Below are positions 6,079-41,077 of a stretch of DNA of 64,000 nt, piece after piece. The notes beneath the pieces were generated by a model. That model saw nothing but the letters and a program-made list of their open reading frames with translations, was not told the DNA's origin and did not search any database. Numbering within the stretch: position 1 is the stretch's first letter; each line of letters begins with the position of its first letter. The DNA is taken from assembly GCA_012295275.1 (NCBI GenBank), contig CM022679.1, positions 5,890,001-5,954,000 of the forward strand, given 5' to 3'. The stretch comes from Chrysomallon squamiferum. Its lineage: Eukaryota; Animalia; Mollusca. A program made the position numbers and the translations under genes.

Positions 6079-6084
6079 TTAGCC
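6079..6084 (-). CDS. Coding start of the putative terminal exon: GGC TAA (Gly-stop for the exon-A isoform)
   Basis: Strong acceptor ttaattttattttcag followed by an in-frame Gly-stop; supplies the stop that exon A lacks. Confidence 0.55.
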   Translation of the reverse strand, partial: G

Positions 6085-9000
6085 CTGAAAATAAAATTAA
6101 AAAATTGCTGTTAAAATTATGCTACAAAACCATTATAAATAATAATAGTGAAGAATATAAATAAATAAATAATGCAATGTAATAAATAGTTAATTAATTA
6201 ATATTGAAGACAAGGGGAGAAAAAACAAACTAAAAATAATTATGATTTAAAAAAAGTATGATTTAATTATTTCATTTAACATATATGTATCATTGTGCTT
6301 GATGAAACAACCAAATTGAGTTTCATCATGTAAAAGTAGGAATATTCAGCTTTCATGAAAATGATATTAAGACTAGTAAATTTAGAATAAAAGAATTAGA
6401 AAGCTCTAAATGGCTGCAGGTTTAAAACAATTATTCACTAAATAACTGTATTTTATTACAGTCCTCTCTGATGCAATTGCAATATTTTATTTTAAAAACA
6501 ATAATTTTCATTAATTTTCTGAATATACTAAACACTGAATAATTGAAGGTTTACTTTTCAGAAAAACATCACCACTAGAAGACAGTGAAATAATTTTTCA
6601 GACATTATTTTAGTATTAAATAGCTGCTACTTAGGCATTCTGTGTGTGTGTGCATGTGTGCATATATAAGTAGCAACTATTTAACCTGCAATTTCTGGCC
6701 AAAAAGATACTACTAAATGATTGCATAAGATGTAAATTCATGCCAAAAGTAAACTTATGATTTCACTAATTAATTCAGTGGAGAATGTGATTAATTTTTA
6801 TAAAAGACCACTAAAGTTCCTGAAGTGATGTGAGTGAAACATACTAATTATGGTATGTTTCTAGGGTTTCTTCAAATAATGTACATAAATTTTTAAATAT
6901 AGAAGAAAATATGATAACAAGCTGAAATTGTCATGAGGGACTATATCTATAAGACCATAGTCTATCAACTGAATTGTTTTAAGAAGACCAAAAGTAGCCA
7001 TAGTGATAGCACATTTTTCATGAACAATGCTGGGTGGAGCATGACTTGAAATAATCTCTTGATTTTTATCTACGAACATGATTCTGCTATCAAGTCAGCA
7101 TTATTTTAATATGAAATAGAACTAAAAATACAGGGTCATAATAAAGGCCTTGTGCAATTTTACATTTTTATAGTTTCCAGTCTGTGCACAATAGAATTAA
7201 TTTGTAAAAAGAATGTTTAGATTTTTATATATATTTACTGCTGAGGTTATGGTATAAATGAAAATGAGCTACAAAATGTATTTCTAGAATTTCAGAATCC
7301 TAACATGATTTGTATCTGTAACAGTGGTCATATTGAAAATTCGTAATTTCAATAATAAATACATTTAAAAATCCCAGAATTATTTTTCTTATGATTTTTA
7401 CAATTCACTTCTAAATGTAAAAAGCACATTGTCCCTATATAGAAATTCATTTATGAAGGTTATATTCAAAACTTATATATTTATTTGTATCAAGCTGACT
7501 GAAAAAATATTTTGTCTTTAATACCACATTATACTAGAAAGTAAATAAAGAAAAGACAAAAAATTTGGTGAAATGAATGAATAATGGTACATACACTGAA
7601 CCAGAAATATTTATGTTAGGACTATGTCAAAATAAAATTTAATAAAAAAGAAAAAAGAATCATAAGTCTAGTTTTGCCTGACTTTTACATTGTCAATTTT
7701 ACTGTATTGTAATAAAGGGCTCTTATATGGAATATCTTTGACCAAGGATTATAAGTGGATATATCTATGATGCAGGTTAGATAAACTGATTTATGCACCT
7801 TTTAAAATGTTTAATATCAGCAGAAAAATACTTTCCTGTGTAATTTAAATGTATTCACAAAGATTTGTAAAGCAGGTACCATTAAGAAACTAGTCAACTA
7901 AACAACCTAATGCACTTGAAATAATAAAATGTATAACTCTGCTACATCCCATTCTCTGTCAGGTCTCAAGATGAAGTTGATAAGAACATAGAGAACTTTA
8001 TAATGACCCCAATAAACAAATGTTTGGCCTTGAGGTCTGGTCAAGGGCATACTAGCATGGTAAAGATTATCAGATGTGCAAGTCCTGCCAACAGAATCTG
8101 TGCAGATTCTTGTTTAAGTACTACAACCACATTCAGAAATGTCTGTAAATATAAAAATCATGTTTCTCTTAGCCATATTGAAGCACAGATATTCTGCTGA
8201 AAAGTGGTATGGTTCTCATTAGAACATCTGGGTAAACAAGACTGATTAAGTTCATCACCTGAAGCAAGTAACTGAAACAAGTAATATTTATCTAGTCTGA
8301 AAAAAACAATCCAGGCCCACATTTTATTTCAGTTATCAGTTAGTGAATGAAAATTGTCCTTTTTTTGTTATTAGGTTAATAATATCATAAGAAATACAAG
8401 TTTTGAATATTTATCATCCACAATTCACTGTATTATTACACAGATCATATAAAAACAGTATGTATTAATTCTTATTTCCCTGTCAAAATATTAAGACTAT
8501 GTTATATGTTTGTATATAAGTATACAAAAATACACTTCTGTCTGCTGGTAAAAGTATCCCAGTGGATTCCCTCTCTGAAATAATTATGTTGGGGTGTTAT
8601 TAAACTCTAAATAAATTATCAGAAAAATGCAGATTATTATTATCATGATTATTATTACTGTTATTGTTATTGTTAATTGTTTTAAGAAATGTATATATTA
8701 ATTACAAAATATATTCTTTTAAAAAAAAATTCATTGTTATCAAAGGTGTTTGTCCACTTTTATCTTGACATTTTGACAGATACTCTGTTTTGTTTGTAGT
8801 ACTGGTACACATTACCACAACAAGTACTAAATTAAAGCTGTCAGAATGCATACAGATGTATTATTCTGTCATTATGGGTTAGTTACAGACACTGTTGTCT
8901 GTAGTAATACTAAATGTTACTCATTTTTAAAAATATTTCTTTTAAATTCAAGATTGTTTATTGTGGCAACTGAATGAACAAAATGTTTGACACTTCATGC

Positions 9001-12000
9001 AAAATGTATAAAATAAAAAATACTTTGACAATAAAAAAATATATTTCCAAAAATGTAGATATATGTAGTTGCACCTTCAACAAGTTATATAAGTATTTGT
9101 TTCATCAGGTTTTGTTTTTCTTTTCTTTTTGGGTTTTTTCTTTGTTTTGTTAAATAATCAAGTGTAGGCTATTTCACCTGAGCTATATCTGATATGTAAT
9201 TAAATGTAACTGATGTATGCAAACATTAGCTTGTCTTAAAATGACTATTTTAACTGTCAGTGCAGATCAGTCTTTATTACTAATAAAATGTAACAAATAT
9301 CTAAAAGTCCTTTGTTATTCATAATCTGGTGTTTGTTTTCATTCCTCTTTAGTCATGATAGCATGTTTTATAATGTTTATTAATGTCATAAAATAACAAA
9401 ATTAAAACAATAATAATAACATGGCTTTACTCATGATTAGCTGATTGATAATGGTTTTAAAAAAAACCTAGATTGATTAAATAATAAGCAAGATTGCTGA
9501 ATTTGTGTAAAATGCAATGTCAGAAACATTATCAACAGTTTTATTTAGCACCAAAACAAACTTCGATAAAAGCTTGTGATACTAAGATTTTGTTGTTTTC
9601 ATGGAGGGTTTCAGTTTTTAAAAGATATAATATCTAATATAAATAAGAGAGATATCTGGAATAGTAAATGTATGTGTGCTTCAGTTCTAAACCTTAGCTG
9701 GTTCAATCTGATAATGATGAATTTAAATGACAAGTGTCATGGTTTAATACTTGGAATCAACCTAACACTTGTCCCCTTTGGCTATTGGACCCTCTATACT
9801 AAGTCAAAGCAGCCCTGTTAACAGCTCTGTTACCGAGTTACATAATGTTATTAGCTTTTATGCAATACCAATTAACAGTTGAAGGTGCATGCTGGAATCC
9901 TGTGAAATAACTTAATTAGCTATGCAATTTAGAAACAAGAACAAGGCAAAGAAAAATGTTTGATGACAGAGGAATCATGTGATACCACTGGACTAATTAG
10001 TAAACCACAGAAAAAATACAAAAAATAAATAAACAATACTTATTTTATATAGTGTTCAATATGTACATCTATGTATGTGTTTATGTATGTATCTATCTAC
10101 ATGTCTGTAGACATATGTGTAAGTGGGTGTGGGCATATATATGTATGTAGCCTATATGTGTATGTATGAATATGTATCTATTTATTTATGTATGTATGAT
10201 TATCTGCACTTGTCTTCTAGTCACAAGCATTTAAAACTGAGCCCACATTAAATGTACATTGCTTACGTCTTTTATTTACCATATGCAGCATTAATAAAAA
10301 ACTTTTGTTTTGGTAATTTACTAAAGCTAAACATGCAAATTTATATATCAAAATTAATATTTTCTCACTTATCTTAAGATTAATTAATCAAGGCAAAATC
10401 ATGTTAAAAAGGTAAAGAAAAAAGTATATCTTTATTACAGTTTCATGTGCATCCCATGAAAACATTTTAATTATGAGCAGATTTACCTTAATTAATAAAT
10501 TAACTGATAACTTTCACTCTCATCATAGAAAATGAGAAGCTGAACCTGATACTGATTAAAGATGAGAACTCAATACACACCAGTCCTCACAACTGTTCTG
10601 ACAGGAGAAGATGTAGTCTACAGAATGAAGGAAAAACCCGAAGGCACACTAAGGAATATGCTATTACTCATGCAAGATGCCAGCATAATATGTTTGAGGG
10701 AAGTTCAAAACCTATAGTTATTCATTTTTGCAAGTCTGCTGAACTGAGGATCAGCCAAAACTTTAACAAATGTTATTTCTAACTCAGTAAACATAGGACA
10801 CCAGATTCAATTACCCTAGCCAGCTGTTTATAACTAAGTTAGTCAGCCTTGAAAGTTGTCACCCCCTTATCTCAGATGGTCACTTGTGACCATCCACAAG
10901 GTTTGCAGACTAGTCACTTGTGAAAATACCTAGACTTGCTAAAAGAGCAATCTCATTTTTATGTGTGCTCCAAAATTAATGTATTTTAATTTTTGTTTTA
11001 AAATTTTGGATACAAAAATAAGAAATGCATTCAGGTTACTGATGAATGGGAAAATGCCAATTCTTTTACAAAATAAAAGTGGTCTAATGCTTAGTGAAAA
11101 GACTGAAGTGGTAATGAGTTATAATGAAGGAAGAATAATATGCTTCATAAATTAAATAATTAATTAATGAAATAAAGAATATCTTATGTTCCATGGATTG
11201 GTGGAGATACTAGTGAATTAAGAAGTGCTGTATGAACAAAACTGAAAAAAATAATTCTGACAGTATAAAAATGTGATACAATAATAAACATTAGCTTTCT
11301 GGCATGCAATTCTGACAGAGAATGTCTATCATTAACTTAATTCCTGAACTGCCACAGGCTTAGACTTTTAGCAAGTCTAGGGCTGTCAAACCTGTAGTCA
11401 GATTATAGTGATGCTGCCCAGCAACAAAGGTGAGCACTGATACATGACCAGTCACTTACAGTTACAGGTGTATGTATGTCCAGCAAACAAAATGACCAAG
11501 CTTCTCAGAGATAAGTTACAGGTGGACAATAAAGGCCATGGTGCTGGGACAGGCCAATTACATGCTTTCTTGAACAGTGTTTGTTTGCAGAGGTGAATAA
11601 GTCAGACATTTTCTTTAAAGCAATTATCACTTTAGATAATGAGAGATAAATACATCAATAATTAAACAGTGAAAACTACTCTTGTCAGCATTTTATAAGA
11701 AATAAAATAGATTTGATTTAAAAGTAAAAAAAAAATTAATAAAATTTCCATAGCTTACAATGATTTTCTTTTTTAAAATATTATATCTATTTTACAGTAA
11801 AAAATAATTAGTAATTTACATCAGCAAAACAGACTTAAATTATACTAAATGTTTAATAAATTTTGATATTTCATTTTAATGCACAAATGTAAACAGATAA
11901 AATACATATAATAAGAATCTTTTTCTTTTTTTCTTTTCATTTTGTTTATCTTTATAGACACATATTAAAAAAATTATGGTTATCAGCAACATCTTCATCA

Positions 12001-13126: not shown

Positions 13127-13258
13127 TCATGGGCGTCTGCCTCCTTCAAATGGCAGTTGCCGTACATCCTGTTGTCGAGGGTTTGGCCTATAGCCACATC
13201 CCTCTATTGGTAAACCATCTTTTCCTAGAGGACATGGTGCATCTAGTCCAGGGAGACC
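13127..13258 (-). CDS. C-terminal NC exon B: [43 protein letters not shown]-stop (exon probably ends at 13121)
   Basis: attctag acceptor, TGA at 13129-13127, TAG/gtaggt donor 6 nt further on; MACIT motif. Confidence 0.9.
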
Positions 13259-13526
13259 CTAGAATGCAGGAACATGCACAGGCATAATAAAGATAGACTA
13301 TGTAACAAACTAATGAAACTAAGGTCATATATAAAAAGAAAACACAAAGAAAAAAGTTAATATTGTCACAAACAAAAATGAATGACACCTAGAAATAATA
13401 ATTGTGTTAAAACCAAAAATATGAAATCTGAAGGTCATGCATATTGGGCAGCATAAATGGACATCACATCAAGTCAGTTGTACTGCATCCAAGGTGAAGG
13501 TCGTTCATGCCTAAAAATCAAGTTAC

Positions 13527-13610
13527 CTGATTTGGTATACTCCATCCACAGTTTGGTAATGGCAATCCATCAGGACCTATTGGACATGGTGCATCAAGAC
13601 CAGGACTGCC
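13527..13610 (-). CDS. C-terminal NC exon A: [28 protein letters not shown]
   Basis: CTAAC branch motifs, atcacag / gtaact, 84 nt, MACIT C-terminal motif. Confidence 0.92.
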
Positions 13611-17871: not shown

Positions 17872-17925
17872 CTCATTTCCCTTTTCACCTTTCGGCCCTT
17901 TTTTGCCTCTGCGCCCTCTTCGACC
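17872..17925 (-). CDS. 54-nt basic collagen exon, variant b: GRRGRRGKKGPKGEKGNE
   Basis: ttctttcag / gtttgt. Confidence 0.9.
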
Positions 17926-17998
17926 CTGAAAGAAGTTGCAAGGAGCAAATTTAGCATGCAAAGTAATAAAAATCATGCCAAAATCTAACTTGACAAAC

Positions 17999-18052
17999 CT
18001 GCTCTCCTTTTTCTCCTTTGAAACCAAGCCTGCCCCTGCGGCCTCGCACTCC
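17999..18052 (-). CDS. 54-nt basic collagen exon, variant a: GVRGRRGRLGFKGEKGEQ
   Basis: gtttcag / gtttgt. Confidence 0.9.
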
Positions 18053-19258: not shown

Positions 19259-19345
19259 CTGTGCACCCTTGTCCCCTTTGGCTCCTTTTTCACACTGGCA
19301 GCTCCCAGTTCCTGTTCCTATAGGGCCTGGTGGTCCTGGAGGACC
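19259..19345 (-). CDS. Exon GPPGPPGPIGTGTGSCQCEKGAKGDKGAQ
   Basis: aaatag / gtaaga, 87 nt, CxC interruption. Confidence 0.92.
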
Positions 19346-20857
19346 CTATTTAGGTACAAAACACATTTTGATCATTTTTATTTTAAATATTTATTTTAAA
19401 AATCAAATGTTTGTAATAGAAGTAATGATATTAATTTCCTGTTTTTTAAACATTAAAAATCAAATTAATTGGAAATAGAAATTGAATTCCTTTTACTGAT
19501 GATGCATATCCAACCACACAACCTGCTGTGAAAATAAAAATAAATAAATAAATAAATAATAAAGTGAAGAACTATTTTAAAAGAAAAAATATTGAGAAAG
19601 ATATAATAATTAGCAATAAACATAAGGCTGAAGGGAGACAACTCAATAAAAAATTAAAAATTAAGTTATATATATATATATATACACTAGTAATACAGTA
19701 CTTCTTGTATAACAAAAAAGTTACTCACAAAACAATAAATTCTCTAAAACAAATGTCTTACAAACCATCCAAATCTAATTAAGGAATTTGAAAAATAAAT
19801 AAATAAATAAAATAAACAATAATCTATATAGTATTATACAAAATTTACTTTTATGTATTTTTTAATGCTGAAAAATTAAAAAAGCAAAAACAAAAAACAA
19901 ACCGAAAAAAAAACAAAAAATACAACCCAATTATAACATGCTATGAGTCTTGAAATAGTGTTTGTAACTATTTGTAAACAGAGGCACTAAAGAAATCTTT
20001 TGTAAAGTACTTTTTTCTACTATTATCAATTTTTTTCTTATTAATCTTATTTTGTTTGTTTGTTTTTCTTCTTTTTTTTCAAACTATCCAAAATATTTGA
20101 AGCATTATTTAATGATTTCAACAAATTATTTGTTTAAAGTGCATAAACAATTAAGCTGATTATTTGTACTATTTCACCAAAATTTAGATAGTAATAATAT
20201 CTTTCAAATATTATTTTCAGTTATTTTTTAAAATGTTTTGTTTTAAGAATGGATTCATTCAGCATCCTCCACTAATTACCTGCTTCTAGCATTCTTGCCT
20301 TGACTATGAACATATTTACTAAGATAAATTTCAAAATGATCATCTTAAATCAAATCAGAAACTGGAGAAAATAAATTAAACAGTTAAAGAAATACAGCCT
20401 ACATTATATTGTGCAAAATGAAAAAAGAATGATACTGAATATTTTAGTTAACAGAAACTGAAATGAAGCGAGGTGTGAAATATGCTAGCAAATGCAAGTG
20501 TCAGCAGTTAAAATAGTTTATATTTTATAATATACAAAATGTAAATTATCTTTATCTCTGGGAAAAAATATATTTTTTGTTTAACTACTATTATTTTTAT
20601 AGTTTTAAGTTTAACAATGATAATATAACTAACTGTTAGGATTTACTGAGTTTTTTAAAGCTATCATAAGAAATTTTATTTTATAGACTATTATAAATGA
20701 ATATAAAAATAAAAAGTATCATTACATTCTTACCAAGTTCCAAATATTTATTTATTTATCTTTTATGAAAAAGTATGATATAAGAAAGCAAATTTTTATA
20801 TAGCTGGTAATAATTTAAAATAAGTGAAATATCTCATGGCATATATATTATAGGAAA

Positions 20858-22795: not shown

Positions 22796-22858
22796 CCTCA
22801 GACCAGGTTTGCCCACCAAACCTGGATAGCCGGGCTTGCCAATCGGCCCCTCAGCCCC
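22796..22858 (-). CDS. Collagen exon GAEGPIGKPGYPGLVGKPGLR (likely alternative)
   Basis: cctactag / gtgagt, 63 nt; flanks are relatively GC-rich and motif-rich. Confidence 0.9.
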
Positions 22859-23954
22859 CTAGTAGGTAAAGTGCATGGCAGTGCATCAGCAGTGTCACAT
22901 CCCACAATAGCATACATTAATAATCATGAGGTAGCTGATATTACCATGTAAAACAATTATACAATATTACCATGTTTCTGGTAAAGTTTTTTTTTTTTTT
23001 TTTTCTTCTGTTATTTTCATGAACATTTATTGAAATCTATTTTATAGTTTATATTATTTGGTATCTAAATTTGGTTATTCAAACTTTTTTTTTCCACAAA
23101 AATAATGTAAGATTTGACTCTATCTTCTCTGCTGTAACAACTCTGTTTGATTGCTTTTTGTTTTTTGTTATTTTTTGTTTTGTGTCTTTTATATATATAT
23201 TTTTTGTTGTTGTTTTTTTGGTAACATCAGCTTTGAAGCAATATATCTTATCAGTATCACAGTATATAAAAAAACAGTATTATATTTACATACACATTTT
23301 TTTACTAAATTTAACAATAGCTAAATTAATTAAAACAGCCAGACAAAAACCTCTATTGACCTCATATTCATAACTGCTAATAAAAAACATATTAAAAAAC
23401 TAGAATGACATACTACGTTATTTACTGACAGAGTGAATTTATTTTAAAACAAAAGCTAAATGAATGAAATTGTATGTATATTTTGCTATTAGCCAGTATC
23501 TCTTCTGCTAGTTTTTCACAACTGATAAACTAACCTAAAACTACAGACATCCAGTGGATGAATGAAAAATAAAACACAGGTACCTGGCAAATTGTACTTT
23601 TCTCTATTACCTGAGTTCATCATGAGTTTGCTGGCACTGGTGTCCAGCTGACAAACACAACATCTAGAACTAGTGTAGTAGATTTTCATTTTTAAAACTT
23701 CCAGAACAAATGAAGTTTTTTAGTGACTTAGTACATATATTTTTCCACTTTTTAACTAATGAATTAAGCCTTTTGCCTTTCTATTTTCAAAAATACCTTG
23801 AAACAATAAGTCAAACTAAAGGAATTTTCAAAACATAAAACTACCATTACTCTATTGTTTATAAATTATCAGTCATAAATATGGTATCATTTCTTTTTTC
23901 CATGCTCTTTATAGTGATGCTGAATTAATATTAATTTGGGGACTTTTATTTCAT

Positions 23955-23993
<39 letters not shown>

Positions 23994-25194
23994 CTTATTT
24001 AATTTTTAATTTATTTATTTATTTTTTTGTCATACCTATGTAACAGTATTTTACATTTATAAAGAAATATACAGTGAATGTAAAAATTAAGAAAGAAAAA
24101 AGCAATATCTGCAGATACAGAATCTGAAAAAGGTACTAATTATTACAAAATTAAATTAAAGAGTTGGAAGCCTGAGATATGATGAGATGACTGAATCAAA
24201 ATGAAATGCCATAGTTATGTTATTAAATCATATAAAAATAAAATACAATGATTACTTTCATTACACAAAAATCAAGGACCATTTTTTTTTTTTTTTTTTT
24301 TAAATCATTACTTATGTATATAAGCATGATTGGTATCTCATAATTACTTTACAAAATAACAATAACACATTTGGCGGGATGTAACACAAGTGCAGTGCAT
24401 GTGCGACAAAATCACTGACAAACAAACATTACACACACACCCACAAAAACAGGTGTTGTTTGAACCACAGCTGTTAACAAGTGATGTGACCACTTTATAA
24501 ACATGAACTTTATTGTACAATCTTCAGTGAAAAAAAATAAAAAAAAACAAAACATGAAAAATTAGTGGAATGTGATGGTATATAAAATGAGTAGATTAAA
24601 TTTTAAAAGTTTGAAGGATAGAGATAAAATGGATAAAGAAAAATGTCAGATATCTTGTTATGATAAAGACAGAAGGATGCTGGAGTACAGTTAGTACAAT
24701 GGTCAAATGAATAAATTATTTAATAAATTAATATATGATTTGATTATGAATAAAGATGGTCAAAATCAACACATTTAACTGGAAATAACACAAGTCTTAA
24801 AGAGCAATTTTCAAAACAAAAATATTCTGTATGATGTTCTTTAATTGTATTAGGTCACATGACAAGTGGACAGCAGGGAACAGTGACTTGCACAGCACAC
24901 AACAATACTCTCTGTAACAGAGACATAAATTCTGAAAGTTATTAGCTTTTTGGAGGGCAAACATACTAATATATATTAATATCAAAATATATTTTTCATG
25001 GGCAGAAAAATCTCACAAAATAGAACTTACATTTGTTTTATATAAAGAACAGAAAAATAATGATGGATTGAAAAGATTAAAATTGATTTAAAAAAATAAA
25101 AATAAAATAAAAACAATAGTAATAATAATAATAAAGGAGACTATATAGAGTTTTTCTTTCTTTAAAATGATGAAATTGAAACAAACAAAAAATG

Positions 25195-25248
<54 letters not shown>
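25195..25248. repeat. Poly(A) tract (others at about 3989-4024, 43946-43976 and 60261-60282)
   Basis: Direct. Confidence 0.9.
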
Positions 25249-25250
<2 letters not shown>

Positions 25251-25508
25251 AAAAAAATGAAATCTACATACAGAAAGTATTTTAGCATATATTTTCACAA
25301 CATGTAAAACATTAAAAATATCAAACACAGGGGGAAAAAAAGACTAGACTTTCCCAATTATCCCCTCTAGTAAATACAATATAATGAAATCTTGAATTTC
25401 TCACCTGTAAACATGTAAACAAGGGTATAACTGAAACCAGTACATAAAGCAAAAATACACAAAATAGTCATGCATTTACATTTAAAGAATTAACATGCAC
25501 AAACTTAC

Positions 25509-25553
25509 AGGTAAGCCTATTGAGCCTGGTTCACCTTTTGGCCCTGTGGCACC
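25509..25553 (-). CDS. Collagen exon GATGPKGEPGSIGLP
   Basis: ttaccag / gtaagt, 45 nt. Confidence 0.9.
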
Positions 25554-25865
25554 CTGGTAAAATAATAATATTGTTGTTCTGATTAAAACAGAATTTTATT
25601 ACAAATGAAATAACAACTTACAGTTTCTTAGTACAAAGAACAACAAAAAAAAAAAAGGGGTAAATTAATATTGTAAACAAACATACAGAGAAAAAACCAT
25701 ATGTGTTTCATTATGGCATAAAAAAAATAAATACTATTTAATCAAGTATTTTACATATTGTAGTGAACATTTAAAAAAAGAAAGAATTAAAAGCTGGAAA
25801 AAAAACAATATTAATAATAATTTTTTTTTTATCAAAACATACATAATTCAGACAAAACAACTTAC

Positions 25866-25901
25866 TATTTCTCCCTTAATACCTTGTGGTCCACTGTCCC
25901 C
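25866..25901 (-). CDS. Collagen exon GDSGPQGIKGEI
   Basis: gttttag / gtaagt, 36 nt. Confidence 0.9.
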
Positions 25902-26225
25902 CTAAAACAATAGCAAATTTAAAAAACAACAGTAACAAAAAAAAAGCTACTAAAAACAAAACCCAACAAAAACAACTGAATATATTTTTTTCTGGAATTT
26001 TGCATGTGTGTTTTTAATACTGATCAATTTTATCAATTAAACTTTCAATTTTATGTATTTTCTGATTCCAAAATAGAGAAAAATAAAAAAACAGCACATC
26101 AACAACTGTAACTTACTGTAAAGAGTATTGCTATTAAAGTTTAAGATTAAGTTCAGTTTAAAAATGATTTAATCATTTTCTGTTTAATCATTTACTACAG
26201 CATGGATTTTATATAAATATAATAC

Positions 26226-26261
26226 CTTGATACCCGGTGGGCCCTGTAGTCCCATTGGTCC
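26226..26261 (-). CDS. Collagen exon GPMGLQGPPGIK
   Basis: taatag / gtatta, 36 nt. Confidence 0.88.
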
Positions 26262-26927
26262 CTATTAAGGTAAATAAAATCTGGTATTTTTAATGCAGTT
26301 AAAATATAAATATACTAAATAATGATATTGGGGAATAGCAATTACAGATATCAACTGATGTAGAAATTAATAGCAATATATAAAATAAATAAATAAAATA
26401 GTAATCATAAAACAAATATAAAAAATATAATTTTGGTAAATATGTTTATTTTAAGATAGAACTGAAATTAATTCTTATGGATTTTTTATTTTTTATTATT
26501 CAAATATGTTATTTTTAATTTATCATAGCTTATAACTAATTATTCCTACAGAAGCATGAAGAAAAATATAATAATAATAATATAATAATAATTATAATAA
26601 TAATAATAATAATAATAATAGTAATTAATAACTAAATAATAAATATTATTCTTTTTTAATATAATAGATGTATTATACCATATTATTTTTTCAATATTAT
26701 GGACATTATTTAAACCAAAAACAATTATAAAACAAAATAACAGAGTGGATAAAAAATATATTACAAGTACACATAATTTTATTTCTCACTTTTAAATTAT
26801 TTATTAATTCCAAGAATTTAAATGTATTAATAAACAATTAATAAATACATAAATATGCTGATATTAAATATCTGTTTTGCTTTCTTCTCAGTTATTTTTG
26901 ACATGCATACACTGGAAACATTCTTAC

Positions 26928-26960
26928 CATTGGTCCTGGTGGACCTGGTGGGCCAGGCAG
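26928..26960 (-). CDS. Collagen exon LPGPPGPPGPM
   Basis: ttacag / gtaaga, 33 nt. Confidence 0.88.
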
Positions 26961-27351
26961 CTGTAATACAATTTCAGATTCTTAAATTTTTATGCATCTT
27001 GCATATATACCTAATTTAATTTATCTTATACAAATCTAACTTTTCAAAAAACCCTAAAAAATAACATAATAATGATAATAATAATATAAAAAGGAAGCAA
27101 CTAAATTTTCAAATTTGTGTATTAAAAATATTAGTTAAAATTTGTTATAAATTAAATATTTTTAAATATACAAAATAATGATTGTAGATAAACATGTAAC
27201 AAACATAAGAATATGGCAGTACCCAATAACTTATTTTTAATTTTAATATACTGACTTTAGGTACAGTATTAAACGCTATTTGTTGCTGGTTAATATCCTG
27301 GGAATAAATATTATGACACTGTTTAATATCAAATAAACCCAGATCACTCAC

Positions 27352-27390
27352 CCCTTCTCCACTTCCACCCTCTATAATGCCAGGTTCTCC
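27352..27390 (-). CDS. Exon GEPGIIEGGSGEG (helix interruption)
   Basis: atgtag / gtgagt, 39 nt; its final Gly restores the register of the next exon. Confidence 0.85.
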
Positions 27391-28130
27391 CTACATATAA
27401 ATATAACAAAAAGTTTCTTTACAATAAAAAAATAAATAATCAAGACACAGGTAAATTTCAGAGTTTAACTACTTAAATTAAACCACAATCAGATACTGAA
27501 TATTAGAAGTTACCCACTTTAGCTGTATCATTGTCAGTTATTTATTATGTATAAATGTGTTAATATTATTAATAACACGTAATAATGCAGTATTGGGTGA
27601 TTTATTTGGAATATGTTAAAAGAACTCTATGGACATATCACAAAGTATTCATTGTTCCATTTTGTTGGTTAGTTTAAAAATGAAATAACTTACTTTTGTT
27701 TCATTATATAACAGTATCATTTCAACAAAATTCATTAACGTAAAGACAAAATTTAGTTGTTATAAATAATATCTATATAAAATATTTCAGAGATCCTCTA
27801 TTTAATATGCTCAACATCATCATTTTAAACGATGTATCTTTAAAATTTTCTATAAAATTTAGTTTGGTTGTCTTTTGTACAAGATCCATTTTTTTACAAA
27901 CAAAAAGAATCAATATAGCACATAATATGACAAATAAAGAACAGATAGAAGAGGCAATTAGTTTAAACACATGGTAGAAATGTAGTTCTTGTAAATAGAT
28001 TAGGGACACAGAACAAAAAGAAAAATATGATTTACATAAAACAACTGTATGCTATAGCATTTAAATGCAATTTATCTTGATCAGCAAGAAATAAAATTGG
28101 TCAGTGTTTCTTTGACATGCTTTAGAAATA

Positions 28131-28430
28131 TCAGGAATTTCAGATAATTTTGTTTAATTTTGGTACAGACAGATGCATGTTGTTTTGTTTTTTTTCAGTA
28201 AATTTTACATAATTTTCCTATAGTCTAATAGGAACACAAATATGCACTTTATTTGTCAAATTTCAGATAATTTTTCTTTCATCTAAAAACATCCATGTTT
28301 GTTGAGAAATTTCCCATAATTTTTCTTTAGTCTAATGTACTTTCTTTGGGAAATTTCACTTCATTTTTCTTCAGGATATTAAACATGCATTTTATTCAGT
28401 ATAATTTACATAACTTTGTTTTATTCTGAC
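28131..28430. repeat. Degenerate ~60-bp minisatellite, about 5 copies
   Basis: Recurring aattt(c/t)a(g/c)ataatttt...tctaa blocks. Confidence 0.55.
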
Positions 28431-28495
28431 AGAGGTGAACAGAAAAACACAGTAACACAACATGTCATGCACAGACACAAATCTCATGTACTTAC

Positions 28496-28585
28496 AGGGG
28501 GACCAGGTAAACCAGGTGGTCCAATCACACCTGGCACACCAGGATCACCTTTGTCACCTGGTTCACCTTTCTGACCAGGGATGCC
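28496..28585 (-). CDS. Collagen exon GIPGQKGEPGDKGDPGVPGVIGPPGLPGPP
   Basis: aatcag / gtaagt, 90 nt. Confidence 0.92.
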
Positions 28586-28863
28586 CTGATTTGTATGTCA
28601 ACAGTAAAACATTAGATTTTGTTCACCACAACAATGATTTTTTACTTGTAAGGACAATATAATTAATATTGTAATATTATTTATTTCTTTGTAAAACATT
28701 TTTAGAATTCAAAGCAGAATTTATTTTAAAATTTACTTTAATAAATTAAATTCAAATTAACACTTTTTAGAATTCAGGAAAAATAATTTTAAGAATATTT
28801 TTAGTAAACGTTTTAACTAAAAAGAAAGGAAAAATGGAACAGAACATTTTATAAGAAACTCAC

Positions 28864-28935
28864 AGGTGGCCCTGTGATACCCATTCTTCCATCAATTCCA
28901 TTTCGACCTGGTTCTCCTACTGACCCTTTCTCTCC
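28864..28935 (-). CDS. Collagen exon GEKGSVGEPGRNGIDGRMGITGPP
   Basis: tgacag / gtgagt, 72 nt. Confidence 0.92.
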
Positions 28936-29172
28936 CTGTCACACAAAATTTTATTATGTAAGAAATAATTAAAAACCTACTGACAATTATTTTAGAATAT
29001 TAAAAGTAGTTTTAACATGACTTATATATACATATATAAACCTTACTGCAATGCATTTTACATGTTTACTTTTAGCTCTATACCATTATTTAGCAAAATA
29101 AATTTAATATTTCATAAATAGATTAGTATTTTCAAAGTATAGGATTTGTAAAAATTATTATTCTTATATATA

Positions 29173-29204
<32 letters not shown>

Positions 29205-29303
29205 TGCTTTCGTTTTTTATCTGTTCTATGTGTTTCTGGCATTTGTCTCTTCAGGGTTGTTATTTACCAACACTTTAGTTTGTTATCATCAAATTTCACA
29301 AAC

Positions 29304-29429
29304 CTGTTGACCTGGTAAACCAAATGCTCCCTTCTCTCCTTTTGGACCAATAGCCCCAGGTGGACCTTGTGGTCCAGGAAATCCAAATCTCCCAAAATTA
29401 CCCTTTTCACCCCTACGTCCCCTTCGTCC
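29304..29429 (-). CDS. Collagen exon GRRGRRGEKGNFGRFGFPGPQGPPGAIGPKGEKGAFGLPGQQ
   Basis: ttgttag / gtttgt, 126 nt. Confidence 0.92.
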
Positions 29430-31339
29430 CTAACAACAGATAAAACTAATTAAATTGCTTCTTAATATTTACTTAAAATGATAGACATACCTTCTAATAA
29501 ATCAGACATTATGAAATTGTATTTATTAGCAGTAGTATTTACAGAGCTGATTAATATTATATATTTATTAACAAGGCTTCATTTACAAATAATATATGCA
29601 CAAATTAATAATACTGTTTTGTGATTCATCTATTTGATTTGTTATGTAATTATTAATTGAAAAAAAATTGGAATTTGTTAACTTAACAAATCACATTAAT
29701 TTTACATGATCAGTTAAAAAATACACATTTTCTTTTTTTCAGTTACATTAGGTATCTTAGAGAGCAATACAAAGGTGAAAACTGTACAAAACCAATTATT
29801 CAAATAACATCAATTCAACTCACACAATACAGAATGCACAGAAAATGATATACAAAAAACATATTTCAACATGCTTACAAATTATTCACATTAAATATTT
29901 GTTTCTTGAAATATGCTATTATATAATAATTATGGAATATTTATATCAAACTGGATTTTTATAAAATGTTAATTTACAGAAGAAAATATAATCTGAAATT
30001 TATTTCTATTGTTGGAAATTAATATAAATAAATACTGAACATCTACTGCATTTTACTTTCAGACCAGATACATTGATATTGCAAGAAACAAAATATTTCA
30101 GGTTTACATGCAAGATATAACAAGAAATGAATTTAAAATTCATTCTCCCTTCTATTCAGTTTTATCATGCAAAATGAAGTAACATACAAGAAAATTCGCA
30201 AAGTACTTTCTTGAGATTCTGTTTCATTCATCCTTGATGTTAGATAGTTGCTAAGAAAACGTTTCTTCTTTCCATTTATTCATGATATCTTCATGTTACT
30301 TTGTTTTGTAAAAATGTGTGTACCAGTATAACCACAAATACACAACAAATGTATGTTAAAAATTCATGCAAGCATAAGTTTTCATTCAAATTTCTTCAAT
30401 ATGCAATCAGATTTAAAATTTATGATTAATCTGAATAATATGATCTTCTTTACTTATTCAGAGATTGGTTGACTAAATAAATAACTTCTGAACTATCTGA
30501 AAGAATGAATTTATATTTTTAAAAATTATATGAAATAAATATATATTTCTTATCATTAAATGTTTCTTCTACTTGTTCTCAAACTTAAATTATAATAAAA
30601 ATTCTAAGCAGAAAAATCATTCCTTTAAAAGAAGAAATTTAACTGGGTGAAATTAGATACTTTAATATGGTTTAAATGTGTACTGATAACATTTTCTATT
30701 ATAAAAACCATACAAACAAAGCTCATGCAAAGATGCATGCAGTACAAAGTTCAAAACATTTTCTATGAGTACATATTTCACACTGAATTAAAAAAAAGAC
30801 AATGAGAAAAAATAGTCCAGTTAAAATTTCACTAGGTATGCTAGTTGAAAACATCCAGAATGAAATTGGTAAAAAGAAAGAGTATTGAAAAGAAAAGTTA
30901 ACACAACAACAACAACAATAATAATAATAAGAAAGAAAGGAACATCAAAGAAATGCTAATAAACAAGTATATACATTTTTCATCTGATACAAATATCCTA
31001 AATTTACATGTTTTAACATAACATTAAAAATCACTTTTATTATATTTTGTTGTCTAATTTTTATATATGACATATTTAATAGATAATCTAATAATTCAGT
31101 GCCCAAGATTTCAGAACAGTAACAATAATTTAAACAAATAAATAAACAAAATAAAGCCTCATTGTCAGAAAATAATAAATAGTAATAATTATGAGAATAT
31201 ATAAGACATGCTTTCTATAAAATATTTGTTTTATTTTGAAATATTTTCAGAAATAAAAATTTGATTGTCTACCAAGATTCCTGCATGCACAATGACTAAC
31301 ATAGATGCTTAGGAAAAGCAGGCAGGCTATATTATTTAC

Positions 31340-31411
31340 CCGTTTACCCCTCTTGCCCCTTTCCCCTTTCTCACCCCTGGGTCCGGGTGCCCCTGGAAGT
31401 CCAATTCTACC
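31340..31411 (-). CDS. Collagen exon GRIGLPGAPGPRGEKGERGKRGKR
   Basis: ttgttcag / gtaaat, 72 nt. Confidence 0.92.
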
Positions 31412-33322
31412 CTGAACAAAAAAATATATATAATTAAATAAATAAAAGAAAAAGAGAAAATTATAGTTATTAGAAACCTTTTGATTATTTTGAATAAATA
31501 ATGTTATTTCATTTATTGCAATTGTTTTCAAATAACAATAACACCAAACTAGAAATGCAGTGTATATCTGAAAATAAAATAAATTAGTCATGCATTTATT
31601 AGATTAGAAATTAGTAATAAACAACACCAGAACAACAAATGTCAGTACTAATACAAGAAAATAAATATACAAAAAATAAAATAAAGTGATATAAAATCAG
31701 ATATAAGATACATTTGAAACAATTCAAATATAAGAATGATATGGTATTAACTTTTAGATGATTTAAAGCAGCATCCTTTTGTTGTTTTGTGGTGGATATG
31801 CATCATCATATAATAAAGGAATTCCTGAAATAAATACAACTTAAATTATTAAGAAAATACAGTAATATTTACATGCAGTTTATAATATAAATGTTTCTTT
31901 AGATTAAAAAACAATTATTGAAATGATTGAAAAAATTTGTTGCAAATGATCTTCTTTGAAATATTCATATGTTCATACATTATTTATTTAGGATAATTAA
32001 GAAAATTAACATTCAGAACAAGACTTAATTTCCTTGTAACAAAATTTTAATATATTAAATGTTAATTTTATAGAGGAAGCAAAGCATTAACTGAAATATT
32101 TCAGCTGTGTGTGAATGTGTGTGTGGGTATTTTTATATATATATATATATATACACAAAATCTTATGTCATATAAAACAAATTAGTAGTAATGATCATGT
32201 TTTGGATATGAATTTAAATTTAAAGCTTCTTTTCATTTTATTAGCTTTTAAGATTATAAAGCTTTTATTATATATCTTTTTTAAAAGTTAATTAATTATG
32301 ATACAACTATGACAGTGAGTAGAACTAAGAAGAATATTATTTTACATGTTTTTTTAATTATTATTATTCTGGCTTTATTTAATGTGAGCCTGCTATAATT
32401 ATAATGATTAAATTTAATTTAATTCACAAAAAGTGTAAGTAAACAGAATTAATAAGACTATAAAGAGAACATAATTTTAGTATAAGATTTTCTTAATAAA
32501 GAGTTATCTCCCATACTGTATTCAGCTACCACCACCATTGAAGCTTTAGCCCATAACCTAGAAGAGCAAAATAATATACAAGGTGTATACTGGAACAAAT
32601 ATATTTTTCATTTCAAGAGGTGAGCATTGTAAATAAAAATGCTTTTTAGTCTCCTGTCTGCAACTCCAAGGACATAACATATTAGCCAAAAAAATGTCTT
32701 TTAATATTTTAAAAGCCTTTAGCTATTAAAAACTGATGTGGTAATTAAGTGGTTTACTTTTATTCCAGTAAACACATATTATACAAATAAAATAAATAGA
32801 AAATGCTGTGTGAAAATTATAAATTTCTATCTTCAGTTCAGCCATAAGTAATTTAAAAAGAGTTAAAAATACAAGCATTCTATTTAAAAAGATTTTAAAT
32901 TATAGAAAAGACTATTTATTATAAATGAATTCTTTATTTATTTTATTAAGATTTTTTTCCCCAAACAATGTATATATAATCATGAAATTATAATATTTAT
33001 ACGTTAAATCAAATTTCTTCAATAAGTACTTTCAACAAAAATGAGAAGAAAAAATCTTTATTAGTTAACCTTTATGATAATAATGTTGATGTTTGATAAA
33101 TCTAATACATATAAATTTAAAAAATGATAATAATAAATAATAAATATAATAATAATTGAATGCTTAGTGACTGATGTTTATTGATAGAAGAGTAGAATTA
33201 GCACACAGCAAATTATTAAATTCTGAAATGAAAATATTAGAAAGACACTATTATTAAAAAGGGATTTCTGTGACTGCAGCAAATATACTGTTTTTCTGTT
33301 AGTGATCTTGTATGTGGAATAC

Positions 33323-33526
33323 CTGCAACATTTCATTACACTCATCCACAGGTATAAATTTGTCTGAAGTTGCTGAGCTTTGCTTTCCATCTTGTAAGGT
33401 ATCAGAGAAATTATAGACTGGAACATCAGAATCTGACTCATCAGCACTTATACGTTTAGTTCTGCGACTGCTTTTTCTTTTCACTTCCATTCGGCATGTT
33501 CTTCCACGCTTTGAATAATGACCATA
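33323..33526 (-). CDS. Candidate non-collagenous cassette exon (68 aa, YGHYSKRGRTCRMEVKRKSSRRTKRISADESDSD...DECNEMLQ)
   Basis: CTAAC/CTGAC branch-like motifs plus ttctcatag acceptor, CAG/gtattc donor, 204 nt, phase 0-0, no stop; could instead be a transposon relic. Confidence 0.45.
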
Positions 33527-34471
33527 CTATGAGAATGTCAGCTAGTTAGTTTGTATAATCATTTTATGTCTCTTTCCCAAACCACCTAGAATCATCCCAA
33601 TTTTCATAACAATTTTCACAAAAACAAAAACATAGTACTGTTTTGGAGACTCAAATAATTTTTCACACTAGGAAAAATGTTTTAATATATATATATTAAT
33701 ATATTTTTTATTTTTATTCTTTTTTTCAAAAAGGATTTCTAACTGTCAAACAAATTTAACTGACTGGATCAAGCCAGTATTGTTTTTATCTTCTTCAAAA
33801 ATAAATTATGTGAGATAATGTATTGATGATTCTGGGTGACCGCAATAATTATTTGCTGCAGTCACCTGTGACCCAATTTTTTCACCTTGCTTCAATCAGA
33901 CAGCAAGTTTAAACCTTTTAAACCTCTAAATAATATCAAATAATTACTTATTCTATTTCAACTTTACTGTGACTTTCTTCAATTTCTTTTTTCTCAACCA
34001 CAACTCCTCACTTCTATTTTTATCTTTTTTATTCTTTTTTTATCAATATCACAACTCAAAACATAAAATTAATAATTAAAATTAATGATTTAACATGTTT
34101 TATTTTTATTTCCCATTCTGCCCTGTTTTGAAAACAACATCAAACAGATAAAATAATATACAATATATAATTTTAAAATATTAGTATTTTTGATATTTTA
34201 CTTGCTGTGACTGCAGCAAAAAGTGTGAATAGAGCACTGATGTTCACATAACTGACTGTTTATTTGCTTTGTAAATTAAATCTATTTTAAAATTTCTGCT
34301 ATTGTATATTTAAAATAAAATGATACTGACAATACTTCTAAAAAGGAGTAACAAACCTGGAAAACCAAATATTATAAATTTAGATTATATAACAGTTGGA
34401 TTAAATAAGTAGAAAGGTATAAGCATGCAAAGCAGGAGATAGCTGGTTTTAGATGCCAGTGGGCATCTCAC

Positions 34472-34591
34472 CTTCTTTCCTGGAGGACCAGGGGCTCCAG
34501 GGACTCCAGGTGGGCCCTGGATAAACCCAGCAGGAAAATTGCCAAAAGACTCAAACCCACCCCCTGAACCGCTGTTGGACTTTGATTTTCC
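34472..34591 (-). CDS. NC + collagen exon GKSKSNSGSGGGFESFGNFPAGFIQGPPGVPGAPGPPGKK
   Basis: attacag / gtgaga, 120 nt. Confidence 0.9.
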
Positions 34592-36224: not shown

Positions 36225-36401
36225 ATTTTGCCCTTGTGGGCCTGGAGGCCCCAAATCGCCTTTGGGTCCAGGAGGACCCCTTGGACCAGGTTTGCCATTG
36301 TACTTGGTTAAGCCTGGTTTGCCAGTGTCTCCTTTGTCCCCTTTGGCACCTAAACGACCTGGCATGCCAGGTGCTCCTATTTCTCCTTTCTGTCCATGGA
36401 C
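36225..36401 (-). CDS. Collagen exon [59 protein letters not shown]
   Basis: ctaacag / gtgagt, 177 nt, short helix interruptions. Confidence 0.92.
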
Positions 36402-36857
36402 CTGTTAGTTTAGTGCAAAGCATCAATTTGTGGCACAGAAAGTAATGGATAAGCCAAAATGGTGCATAATTAAAAAGCAACAACAAAAAAAAGTAAAAGT
36501 AATAAATAAAATAAAATAATGAAAAATTAAAATAAAAGCCTAAAATCCATACCCAAAGCACTAGCAGATTACATATAGCAAACAGACCTGTGAGGCAATA
36601 ACAATTTTTACAATGTTTCCTGCTCCTAAGGAAATGCTTAAATTATTTAACATCAGCAGTCCACTAGCAAAATATTATTTTATCACTAAGAGTGATCTTC
36701 CATAAAAATCACATTAAACTTGAGATAATCAAATTAATTAAACGTATTAAAAAAATTTCTTTACTTAATAAATCTTTTCTATCTTTAGTTTATTGTTTAT
36801 TTATTTTTTAATTTATGTATTTTTCGGTTCTTATAAATTAACATTTCTGTTAGGGTT

Positions 36858-37032
36858 TTTTAATATGCTTTTAGCAGCAAAAGTATGATACTGATTAAAC
36901 TTTTTTTTTAAATGTTTTAATATGCTTTTAGCAGCAAAAGTATGATACTGATTAAACATTTTTTTTAAATGTTTTAATAAACTTTTAGCAGCAAAAGTGT
37001 GATACTGATTAAACATTTTTTTTAAATGTTTA
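36858..37032. repeat. Minisatellite, 57-bp unit x3
   Basis: ttttaatatgcttttagcagcaaaagtatgatactgattaaac... starts at 36858, 36915 and 36972. Confidence 0.95.
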
Positions 37033-37658
37033 TAATTACACCAACTTTAAATAAATAATTATTTTTGTCTTTTACTTATTTTATTAATTTAAAAAAAAAT
37101 CCTTTATTTTATTTATTTATTAATTTATTATTATTTTTTTTTTAATTTAAAAATAAGCATGCATACTTTTATTATTTGCAAAAAGTGGCAACTGCAGCCA
37201 AAAATATTAAATTCACAGGTTTGCTTGCATTGAAATTAAACTACACTACCATATATAATGCTGCAAAACTATGGATACTGACACAACTATACATGGCAAC
37301 TTGCAGTTTACGTTAATTTAATTTATTATGATAAACAACTATATTAATAGTACACAATTCAATCCTGTAAACGTTATTCAGTATACATTTTGTCTTTTTT
37401 TGTGTTATTCACAAACTCATTATTAATGTTATAATGGTGTTCAAATAAAAAATAAATGGAATATACCATTATACATTACCAAAATTATTTTCTATTATTA
37501 TTTTGGGTAAAATCTGTTTAATGTTAAATAACAACATGTTGCATAAACAATGTAAGATTTCTTTTAAAAAAGAAAAGAAAAAAGATTAGTTCTTTGAAAT
37601 ATTATAATTAACTGTATTATTATAGTAAGGCTAAAAAAATGCACATTAAAAAACTTAC

Positions 37659-37952: not shown

Positions 37953-38154
37953 CTGAAAAATTATTAACATATTGATAGTGATACTTACTGATCTAATTAA
38001 TAAAACTGAAATTTAATCATTCATATATATATATATATATAAAAGAAAAATTTGAATAAAAGGTATACAATGACTGAAATTATTCTTAATACATTTAAAA
38101 AAAAAAGTATTCAAATTCTCAATTCTGAAAACAGATTATAAGCATAAAATATTA

Positions 38155-38471
38155 CAGGTACAGAACCAATTATCTGGCATCCTGAAATCTAGAAAGACCA
38201 GAAAACCGGAAGTTTTTTCCTGATGCTATTTTTATAGTTAGCATACGTGGGTGTTGTTCTCACCAGACCAGAACTACTCTTTCAAGCCACATGGCGTTCA
38301 TTCACTCGCTGCATTGTTTATGTGTTGAGTTGCCACAGTTGTGTATTGTCAATTTTCTTTATGTTTTTAATTTTAAAATGTTTAAATGCCTTGGTACCAG
38401 AAAACCGGAAAATCCAGAAATCTGGAATACCTCAGGCCCTCAAGGAGTCCAGATAATTGGTCTGGTACCTG
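38155..38471. mobile_element. MITE / non-autonomous Tc1-mariner/pogo-type DNA transposon, about 317 bp
   Basis: Imperfect TIRs CAGGTACAGAACCAATTATCTGG ... CCAGATAATTGGTCTGGTACCTG, TA on both sides, internal repeated ACCAGAAAACCGGAA. Confidence 0.8.
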
Positions 38472-38614
38472 TAATAATAATTATCAAAAAATGTAATAGA
38501 AAATAAAATGTTATTTATCTTGAAAATATTTGGAATTAGAAATAACATAAATAAAATGAAAATGTGGAAACAAATGATATAATTATACATGTTTATAAAA
38601 GACTGTCAGCTTAC

Positions 38615-39543: not shown

Positions 39544-39618
39544 CTTTAATTTAATTACTGTTGGTTCCCAGTCCTCCAGTTTAAGTGGCCCAGGCAGACC
39601 TGGTGGACCTCTGTCACC
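39544..39618 (-). CDS. Exon GDRGPPGLPGPLKLEDWEPTVIKLK
   Basis: gtttag / gtaaat, 75 nt. Confidence 0.85.
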
Positions 39619-39967: not shown

Positions 39968-40560
39968 CAGAGAAAAAAAGAGAGATATAGAGAGATATTT
40001 TAAATTCGTAATAAAGAAAAATCCTCAGCACGTTAGTAGTTTGTACTGACGAATGAAACATTTTAAGTATTTTATTATATATATATATATGCTTGGTGCA
40101 AACATGCTGACATGCTAACCATCTGAAATCAAAACAAAACTTGCATTAGCATTACCAAGACAAATTAAAAGCAAGCAATAACATTTATCTTGCACTTGAA
40201 CTGTTTTCATAACATGGTGCCATTGTTTGATATCTCCTTAAATAGATTAATTACTCCATATGCAAAAATATTTGCAGGTAAAAACATTCATGATTGAGTT
40301 TTCATTTCAACAAGTTAATATACATTATCACAAAATGTCCATCAGACACTAGTGTTGTAAAATAATATATACATTAGATATGAAATATGTTACTGTAAAA
40401 ATATTTCCAACATTTATAGTACATTTCACTTGCAAATACTTTTGCATATAAAGTATGGCATTCATCAATATTTAGATATCTGTATTTTTACGTAAAAATG
40501 AAAACAATAACAAAACAACTTGGTCACAAACCATGCAGGTATATATAGGCTGAAACAAAC

Positions 40561-40590
40561 CTTTATTGTTATAACTTCATAATCAGAACC
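40561..40590 (-). CDS. Non-collagenous micro-exon GSDYEVITIK
   Basis: ttttatttcag / gtttgt, 30 nt, phase 0; ending resembles the neighbouring exons. Confidence 0.7.
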
Positions 40591-41032
40591 CTGAAATAAA
40601 ATATATCCTATCAATACCTACATTTACAGTTATTAAATTTTCTAAAATGATTTAACTGTGACATTTGTATTTCAGTTCAGTAAAAACTATATGCCTAAAG
40701 AAGATATGGGGATATGAAAAATGAAAAACCCTATTATCCAAGAATCTTGTTAAAATATGCAAATGTTTTGAAATAGAAAAACCAAAATAAGTTATTATAT
40801 AAAAATATGTTTTTCAGTAGTTGTATCTGAATCAAAAACATTTATATAAAGCAAAAAGAAAATATTTAGATCATTATTTTATCTATTTATTATTTTATTA
40901 GATTTATTATTATTTTTTTTCTTTTTATTTTTCTTTTATTTTTTTTAATTATTATTTATATTTTTAAATTTTTATTTTTTTAAAGATGAGAGACACAACT
41001 TTAAGACCCTTTCTGATTTAGGTCACTGATAC

Positions 41033-41077
41033 CTTCAATGATATAATTTCCCCATCTCGTATAGATCTTTTTAAACC
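41033..41077 (-). CDS. Non-collagenous exon GLKRSIRDGEIISLK
   Basis: ttttcag / gtatca, 45 nt, phase 0, open frame; contains RSIR (minimal RxxR convertase site). Confidence 0.8.

Follow-up and report, generated by a model that had tools for sequence, protein, structure and literature searches.

The 64,000-nucleotide stretch of DNA analysed here (the window) comes from the mollusc Chrysomallon squamiferum (GenBank assembly GCA_012295275.1, contig CM022679.1, positions 5,890,001 to 5,954,000) and has a GC content of about 26%. Its minus strand carries the 3' two-thirds of a collagen gene, in which nearly all exons are phase-0, and the alternative splicing of this gene is the subject of our analysis. 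Judged by its sequence, the gene is a gastropod MACIT collagen and thus belongs with COL13A1, COL23A1, COL25A1, C. elegans col-99 and insect CG42342 (PMC4678570, PMC12669723). Two of the three MACIT characters given in the accessible text of PMC4678570 were found in the window, namely an interrupted triple helix (Gly-X-Y exons broken by NCa/b/c, NC3-type, EGGSGEG and CxC segments) and a C-terminal two-cysteine motif, which is carried by both exon C1 and exon C2. The transmembrane part is encoded by 5' exons lying outside the window; in the orthologue P0001, a short N-terminus is followed by a hydrophobic stretch, as judged by eye. The Pfam Collagen domain was detected in an orthologue, exon C2 is 95% identical to a protein of Gigantopelta aegis annotated as collagen XIII-like, and the matches of our protein search (from scallops, clams and arthropod CG42342) are annotated as XIII/XXIII/CG42342-like. 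A profile search with the N-terminus gave 66 matches, mostly fragments, and those looked up included Lottia, Plakobranchus, Lymnaea and Capitella. The MACIT identity proposed in an initial annotation of this DNA is therefore upheld. MACITs act at neuromuscular junctions and in axon guidance (PMC7848082). In the accessible text of PMC4678570, none was found in Mollusca or Annelida and loss in Lophotrochozoa was proposed; a mollusc MACIT contradicts this model, and public annotations already label such proteins XIII-like.

The exons referred to below are the following (positions are counted from the first letter of the window; all are on the minus strand with phase-0 AG/GT boundaries; the short form is the isoform plan of the G. 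aegis models described further on):

6057..6084, minus: start of the last exon, GGC TAA and then the 3' untranslated region (UTR); read as Gly-stop after C1 and as UTR only after C2; position 6079 is the end of the stop codon
13121..13258, minus: exon C2, Tyr-type C-terminal motif ending in RRP, stop 6 nt before the donor
13527..13610, minus: exon C1, Trp-type canonical MACIT C-terminus
17872..17925, minus: exon B, 54 nt, eight Lys/Arg, in 4/4 G. aegis models
17926..17998, minus: A/B intron, 73 nt, GCAUG at +21, UGCAUG at +40, branch-point-like A at +48
17999..18052, minus: exon A, 54 nt, six Lys/Arg, A-C2 joint in RNA
19259..19345, minus: CxC exon, 87 nt, acceptor of the joint from cassette X
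22796..31411, minus: ten collagen/NC exons encoding 204 aa, frames intact, absent from the short form
33323..33526, minus: cassette exon X, which encodes 68 non-collagenous aa including RTCR and RTKR and contains an alternative acceptor
34472..34591, minus: NC3-type exon with the motif FPAGFIQGPP, left out of the short form; 34516 may be an internal acceptor
36225..36401, minus: collagen exon of 177 nt, left out of the short form, UGCAUG at +11 and +33
39544..39618, minus: NCc, 75 nt, UGCAUG at -17, in 3/4 G. aegis models
40561..40590, minus: NCb, 30 nt, UGCAUG at +25, used with NCa in P0001 and bivalve models
41033..41077, minus: NCa, 45 nt, carries RSIR

RNA contigs were mapped to positions 12500-14480 of the window; runs X1 and X2 are from one study, and X4 gave short spurious matches only. 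In run X1 exon B is spliced to C2, in run X2 exon A is spliced to C2, and C1 is skipped in both. The joint between C2 and the last exon, 7 kb away, was also found in an RNA contig of X2. In X1, 141 nt precede C2, which equals the length of the CxC exon plus B (only 30 of these letters are shown). The gene is alternatively spliced: since the A-C2 and B-C2 joints are both present in RNA, a single constitutive isoform, the finding that the initial annotation had set against its own proposal of combinatorial splicing, is not the case.

The larger isoform differences come from gene models. In all four G. aegis models, the exon 37694-37659 is followed by X, the CxC exon, B and C2; twelve collagen exons (303 aa) are missing, and one non-collagenous RTKR cassette, exon X, takes their place. 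Models of five bivalve species share this short-form plan, their cassette being Arg/Lys-rich with a C-[RV]-L-E-V motif, and the architecture is found in models of six named mollusc species. Upstream, NCa+NCb are used in one of the four G. aegis models and NCc in the other three, and both options total 75 nt (45+30 vs 75). Together with the RNA joints, the NC choice and the exchange of the block for X in the models agree with the combinatorial splicing of the initial annotation, and so does its candidate furin-site cassette exon, which is X, joined to the CxC exon in the G. aegis models. The trio of related NC exons is present as described, its members resembling each other only in a short VITIK/VIKLK/IISLK end; the use of one of three did not hold, as they appear as (NCa+NCb) or NCc. 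The largest event, the replacement of the 12-exon, 303-aa collagen block by X, had been overlooked. X is 75% identical to the Gigantopelta cassette exon; it gave no match in Pfam, and an Atlas search was likewise empty. The KRS motif of NCa is also present in insect MACITs.

For comparison we used a metagenome scan comprising 80 host loci (410 kb, many of them redundant). Locus L014 has an exon homologous to X (at 1141-1485) and a matching series of block exons, with 134 of 199 aa identical (67%) over ten compared exons; in place of the molluscan CxC exon, it has exons of 72 and 36 nt. On comparative sequence grounds, the omitted block is regarded as an ancestral part of the gene, because the NC3-type motif FPAGFIQGPP is also found in arthropod MACITs and in L014, because L014 has the same exon series, and because contigs of other animals (L035 and L052) splice through such exons, a W-type C exon being joined there to block-type exons. 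A longer-length protein search and the N-terminal profile search yielded no long mollusc isoform. It could be argued that the gene makes essentially one short protein and that C1 and the block exons are dying relics, as all four G. aegis models represent the short form with B and C2, and as spliced C1 was not seen in the RNA contigs. Against this, all 12 block exons of the window keep their reading frame and splice sites, one block peptide is identical between window and L014, and A and B are both spliced, so that we find this explanation scarcely credible.

The intron-intron helices of the gene were all scanned for pairing, with exons and low-complexity DNA masked (26% masked). Ten intronic duplexes reached -28 kcal/mol or lower, as compared to a mean of 2.2 (maximum 6) in 30 shuffles. 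At -20 kcal/mol, 239 sense duplexes were counted vs 206±14 and 197 antisense duplexes vs 147±13, an excess on both strands, and by these counts a gene-wide excess of transcript-strand G-U pairs was rejected. The long-range complementary elements of the initial annotation are thus real and above shuffles, while its transcript-strand wobble signal is confined to two partners (S0 and S3) of a single element, which we named D. The elements in question are:

19483..19528, minus: B3, 3' arm of a predicted 12.3-kb duplex; the CxC exon follows after 137 nt
31766..31825, minus: B5, 5' arm of the same duplex
33270..33285, minus: S2, complementary to D, 38 nt past X; D:S2 would loop out X
33850..33865, minus: D, candidate docking element, which precedes X by 323 nt
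34207..34220, minus: S1, complementary to D, 252 nt past the NC3-type exon
37187..37198, minus: S3, complementary to D (two G-U pairs), 461 nt past exon 37694-37659
61622..61637, minus: S0, distant partner of D with one G-U pair

At -22 kcal/mol or lower, D has four partners (S2, S0, S1 and S3), all on the transcript strand, vs a mean of 0.1 and a maximum of 1 in 40 shuffles; on the opposite strand there is none except D's own complement. The four are complementary to the same D bases. D:S2 consists of 16/16 Watson-Crick pairs, and all three substitutions within the S0 and S3 helices yield G-U pairs. As to location, S3 follows the exon joined to X in G. aegis, S1 follows the NC3-type exon, and S2 comes shortly after X; D:S3 would loop out two exons, matching the G. 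aegis joint into X. D can also fold back on its own 3' flank (33866-33835, about -17 kcal/mol), a fifth competitor.

D and S1 had been chosen from the window alone, independently of L014, and both were the top matches in the orthologous L014 intron. The S1 match there is exact over 14 nt, the longest among 14 orthologous intron pairs (chance 0.011 for at least 13 nt). This intron contains S1 and two copies of D in the same order as in the window, upstream of the homologous cassette, and among the 410 kb of the 80 loci the 9-nt core of D is found only here. The second copy, D2, and an element located after the cassette can form 19 of 20 bp, which makes this the counterpart of the pair spanning X. 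Between the cores of the two X-spanning pairs there are one compensatory change (G-C to U-A) and one mismatch; the pairing energies are -30.0 and -27.5 kcal/mol within species and -12.4 and -19.5 across species. At the distance of L014, third codon positions are saturated (28/103). Conservation of paired intronic elements across species, on which the initial annotation had made its proposal depend, is thus found for D, S1 and the X-spanning pair, and the comparison supports a conserved competing RNA pairing around X. The L014 locus further contains a 26-bp duplex (1716-1742 with 2778-2804, -31.6 kcal/mol) enclosing three block exons, with no clear counterpart in the window.

Alternatively, protein regulators (Rbfox and others) could act alone, the complementary elements being remnants of repeats or a protein-binding motif present in both orientations. 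In line with this, one copy of the D partner, S0, is located 28 kb away, S0, S1 and S2 have two bases in common beyond the paired part, and two other strong duplexes are MITE-like (MITE, miniature inverted-repeat transposable element). These are the hairpins 38150-38476 and 40252-40455, with TA-flanked inverted ends of 32-34 bp, which we take to be MITEs; a repeat search of the window gave microsatellites only. What speaks against proteins alone is that all four partners have the sole orientation that pairs with D, that order and intron are the same in the codon-saturated L014, with a compensatory change, and that the D core is restricted to that intron among the 80 loci. We therefore consider this alternative improbable. 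The element at 40252-40455, between NCb and NCc, has five transcript-strand G-U pairs, and its co-option is possible.

B5:B3 is the strongest duplex of the gene; its -49.1 kcal/mol exceeds 55 of 55 shuffle maxima (the best being -45.2). It spans 12.3 kb, and its loop would hold precisely those ten exons that separate X from the CxC exon. According to another explanation, the D/S pairing is functional, B5:B3 and S3 are due to chance or are decayed inverted copies, and skipping of the block is the default without Rbfox. Indeed, the opposite strand is nearly as strong (-46.4), no counterpart was found in L014, and S3 is weak alone (1 of 40 shuffles reached -24). On the other side of the balance, the duplex is the strongest in 35 kb, its arms differ by bulges and one G-U pair and not by mismatches, its ends match the skipped block, and no third copy exists in the window. 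We consider this explanation as a whole quite unlikely. Within the enclosed region, a 14-bp duplex with two G-U pairs (24387-24374 with 22905-22892, -36 when extended) is located about 35 nt upstream of a 63-nt exon, the acceptor of which it may shorten or mask.

The second component is the Rbfox motif. In 6086-41519, TGCATG occurs 38 times on the transcript strand vs 13 times on the opposite strand, the Markov expectation being 10-16, and 15 of the 38 sites are within 150 nt downstream of an exon, in zones making up 11% of the intron length (p 5e-6). The exon-proximal UGCAUG seen in the initial annotation is thus non-random. Sites within this distance follow seven of the 12 block exons as well as NCb, A, C1 and C2, and sites upstream of an exon precede NCc, B and C2. 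The motif is absent from both sides of all ten short-form backbone exons (48055, 47256, 42349, 42021, 41519, 38713, 37952, 37694, X and 19345). In both tandem pairs UGCAUG follows the first exon and precedes the second: C2 has it at -19 and +19, and C1 has GCAUG at +17 and UGCAUG at +87. GCAUG is found at most 60 nt upstream of C2 in all four loci with a tandem C pair vs 12 of 63 W-type exons (a redundant set that includes a few fused arthropod exons), and at most 100 nt downstream of C1 in L063, L010 and L046; the sites that the 45-nt exon has at +11 and +36 have counterparts at +10 and +38 in L014. Rbfox bound downstream enhances and bound upstream represses an exon, according to the available part of PMC11874969. 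Applied to the motif map, this rule predicts that Rbfox shifts splicing towards the long form containing NCa+NCb, A and C1; the default would then be NCc, X, B and C2, as in the commonest G. aegis model.

The two tandem paralogous exon pairs of the initial annotation, A/B and C1/C2, were both found. A and B are of 54 nt each, and the 73-nt intron between them compares with at least 231 nt for the other introns between modelled exons; C1 and C2 have 67% aa identity. A W-type C exon followed by a Y-type one occurs at four of the 80 loci (L014, L063, L010 and L046), and in these the stop of the Y exon lies a few bases before the donor, as in C2. Several loci with 5-10 kb of downstream sequence have no second C exon, so that the tandem C pair is not universal. 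A tandem 54-nt pair (85-nt intron) was detected in one of 32 loci with a 54-nt exon, L063. The initial annotation had suggested that docking/selector pairing of the Dscam type chooses between A and B and between C1 and C2. In its favour, the pairs are tandem duplicates that appear to be used singly (A-C2 and B-C2 joints), and an element at 18892-18858 has several moderate partners (11413, 9220 and 40052). These partners were rejected as within the null range, the best duplex around the two pairs (19258-11600) has -26.8 kcal/mol, which 15.5% of 200 shuffles reached, and the matches shared by the relatives' C1-C2 introns centre on UGCAUG. Pairing at the duplicated exons is thus at chance level, and we regard this version as very unlikely. 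For A and B, the short intron with its branch-like A at +48 suggests exclusivity through steric blocking, which has been described for a short intervening intron (PMC4165533). In the C1-C2 intron of three lineages UGCAUG extends to AUGCAUGAC (window 13443-13430; L063 about 4800; L010 about 141). Window and L063 also have AUGACC(C)UUCAGA in common in this intron, possibly a second factor site or a decoy acceptor.

Based on these observations, we think it probable, with some reservation, that competing pairing around X controls whether the long triple-helical form is made or the short one, with its predicted furin loop, and that Rbfox favours the long-form exons and the first exons of the tandem pairs. 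D:S3 would place X close to the donor of exon 37694-37659, D:S1 would place it close to the NC3-type exon, and D:S2 would loop X out. B5:B3 would loop out the ten downstream collagen exons, X then joining the CxC exon. Exons followed by UGCAUG (NCb, seven block exons, A and C1) would be activated by Rbfox, those preceded by it (NCc, B and C2) would be repressed, and the 73-nt intron would hinder A-B joining. In vivo pairing, Rbfox action, tissue specificity and cleavage are what we infer here from the sequence features.

Several points weigh against this proposal. Regarding pairing, the covariation is thin, as it comes from one other animal and one compensatory pair; the two D copies of L014 mean that its pairs need not compete, and D1 has partners as strong as S1 elsewhere in this GC-richer locus. 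The lack of a B5:B3 counterpart concerns a locus that also lacks the CxC exon, and S0, 28 kb upstream of D, corresponds to no matching isoform. Regarding Rbfox, GCAUG is missing within 200 nt downstream of C1 in L014, from the 85-nt A/B intron of L063, and within 150 nt upstream of X in the window, and repression from upstream sites is less consistent (PMC11874969, as far as its accessible text goes). Regarding isoforms, the database entries (G. aegis and bivalves) are computed gene models and not cDNAs. In the RNA contigs on 12500-14480, C1 was seen only unspliced, which is no evidence of absence, and the long-form block exons lie beyond this RNA-covered part. Finally, isoform coupling is loose: A joins C2, NCa+NCb occur in short forms, and scallop short forms end W-type.

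At the protein level, the non-helical loop contributed by X contains RTKR and RTCR, and RSIR comes with NCa; these RxxR matches are no more than candidates for furin-type cleavage. At the juxtamembrane position, P0001 has VKR instead of RxxR and the scallop orthologues have RVAR. X and the CxC exon repeat the juxtamembrane order of basic site, CxC and collagen, so that cleavage of the short form could set free a small C-terminal fragment. There are six basic residues in A and eight in B, and basic patches in collagen triple helices can bind heparin. It is tempting to speculate that one docking element, kept since distant spiralian lineages parted, serves as the entry switch of a non-duplicated exon and, through a choice among four partners and a 12-kb bridge, turns a long three-domain rod into a short protein shedding a disulfide-linked C-terminal collagen fragment, under cell-type control by Rbfox. 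We regard this comprehensive scheme as tentative, a possibility rather than an expectation.

Like known MACITs, the gene encodes an interrupted helix and a C-terminal two-cysteine motif and shows extensive in-frame exon skipping and, as in invertebrates, extra predicted furin sites in the ectodomain. Unlike the MACITs in the available text of PMC4678570 and PMC12669723, for which exon deletions only are described, it has duplicated C-terminal exons, a cassette in place of 300 aa of helix, and a candidate cis-mechanism; the arthropod MACIT isoforms inspected are without X-type replacement. As in the docking/selector systems of Dscam1, 14-3-3zeta, Mhc and MRP1 (PMC6071210, accessible part), one element is complementary to several; D precedes the receiving exon, and S3 and S1 each follow one of the alternative exons that could be joined to it. 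In contrast to these systems, the chosen exons are not tandem duplicates, the true duplicates are without pairing, and S2 lies beyond the receiving exon X, which it would silence. Since the selectors do not map to duplicated exons, we do not class the gene as a Dscam-type cluster. The closest design is human ATE1 R1-R5 (PMC7797038), in which a local competing module is combined with an ultra-long-range duplex, of 30 kb as compared to 12.3 kb here. In ATE1 one exon pair is concerned and the pairing is proven by compensatory mutants, whereas the long duplex here is predicted and would remove ten exons. UGCAUG-dependent choice in exon pairs is known from the RBFOX-regulated exons of C. elegans unc-32 and egl-15 (PMC3585155). 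A precedent among collagens is let-2 (collagen IV) exons 9/10, where a short intervening intron blocks double inclusion; according to the part of PMC4165533 available, let-2 uses ASD-2 and a 30-nt intron, whereas in the present gene three exon sets and a 12-exon block share a single motif map. Among the matches listed in our search of the open-access literature, we found no account of mollusc MACITs or of RNA pairing in MACIT or collagen splicing. If true, our proposal would extend competing RNA-pairing control from duplicated exons of arthropods and vertebrates to a collagen and to spiralians, with a new geometry in which whole domains are swapped, and it would provide a first candidate cis-mechanism, through short elements, for complex MACIT splicing.

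Some minor observations should be added. Among L005-L080, the C-terminal endings KIAPHE, KMTRHE and KLPPVE recur; these three C-terminal types, compared across hosts, may point to MACIT paralogues in some of them, contrary to the statement of a single gene in invertebrates. An Rfam search of the window gave 0 matches. Candidate exons at 52402 and 31823 were rejected for lack of a compatible frame. At 52402-52388 a short GDKGT frame follows a good acceptor, with GCAUG at +39 and +81, and no frame-compatible donor was found. Two exons appear optional, 44543-44508 being missing from 4/4 and 47256-47230 from 1/4 of the G. aegis models. The last intron contains a perfect 17-bp inverted repeat (10929-11381, 420 nt apart, one copy in the window), and a 60-nt tandem repeat in three copies is located in an intron at 36840-37030. 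Downstream of the gene, the segments 1-1100 and 2950-3900 are dispersed repeats.

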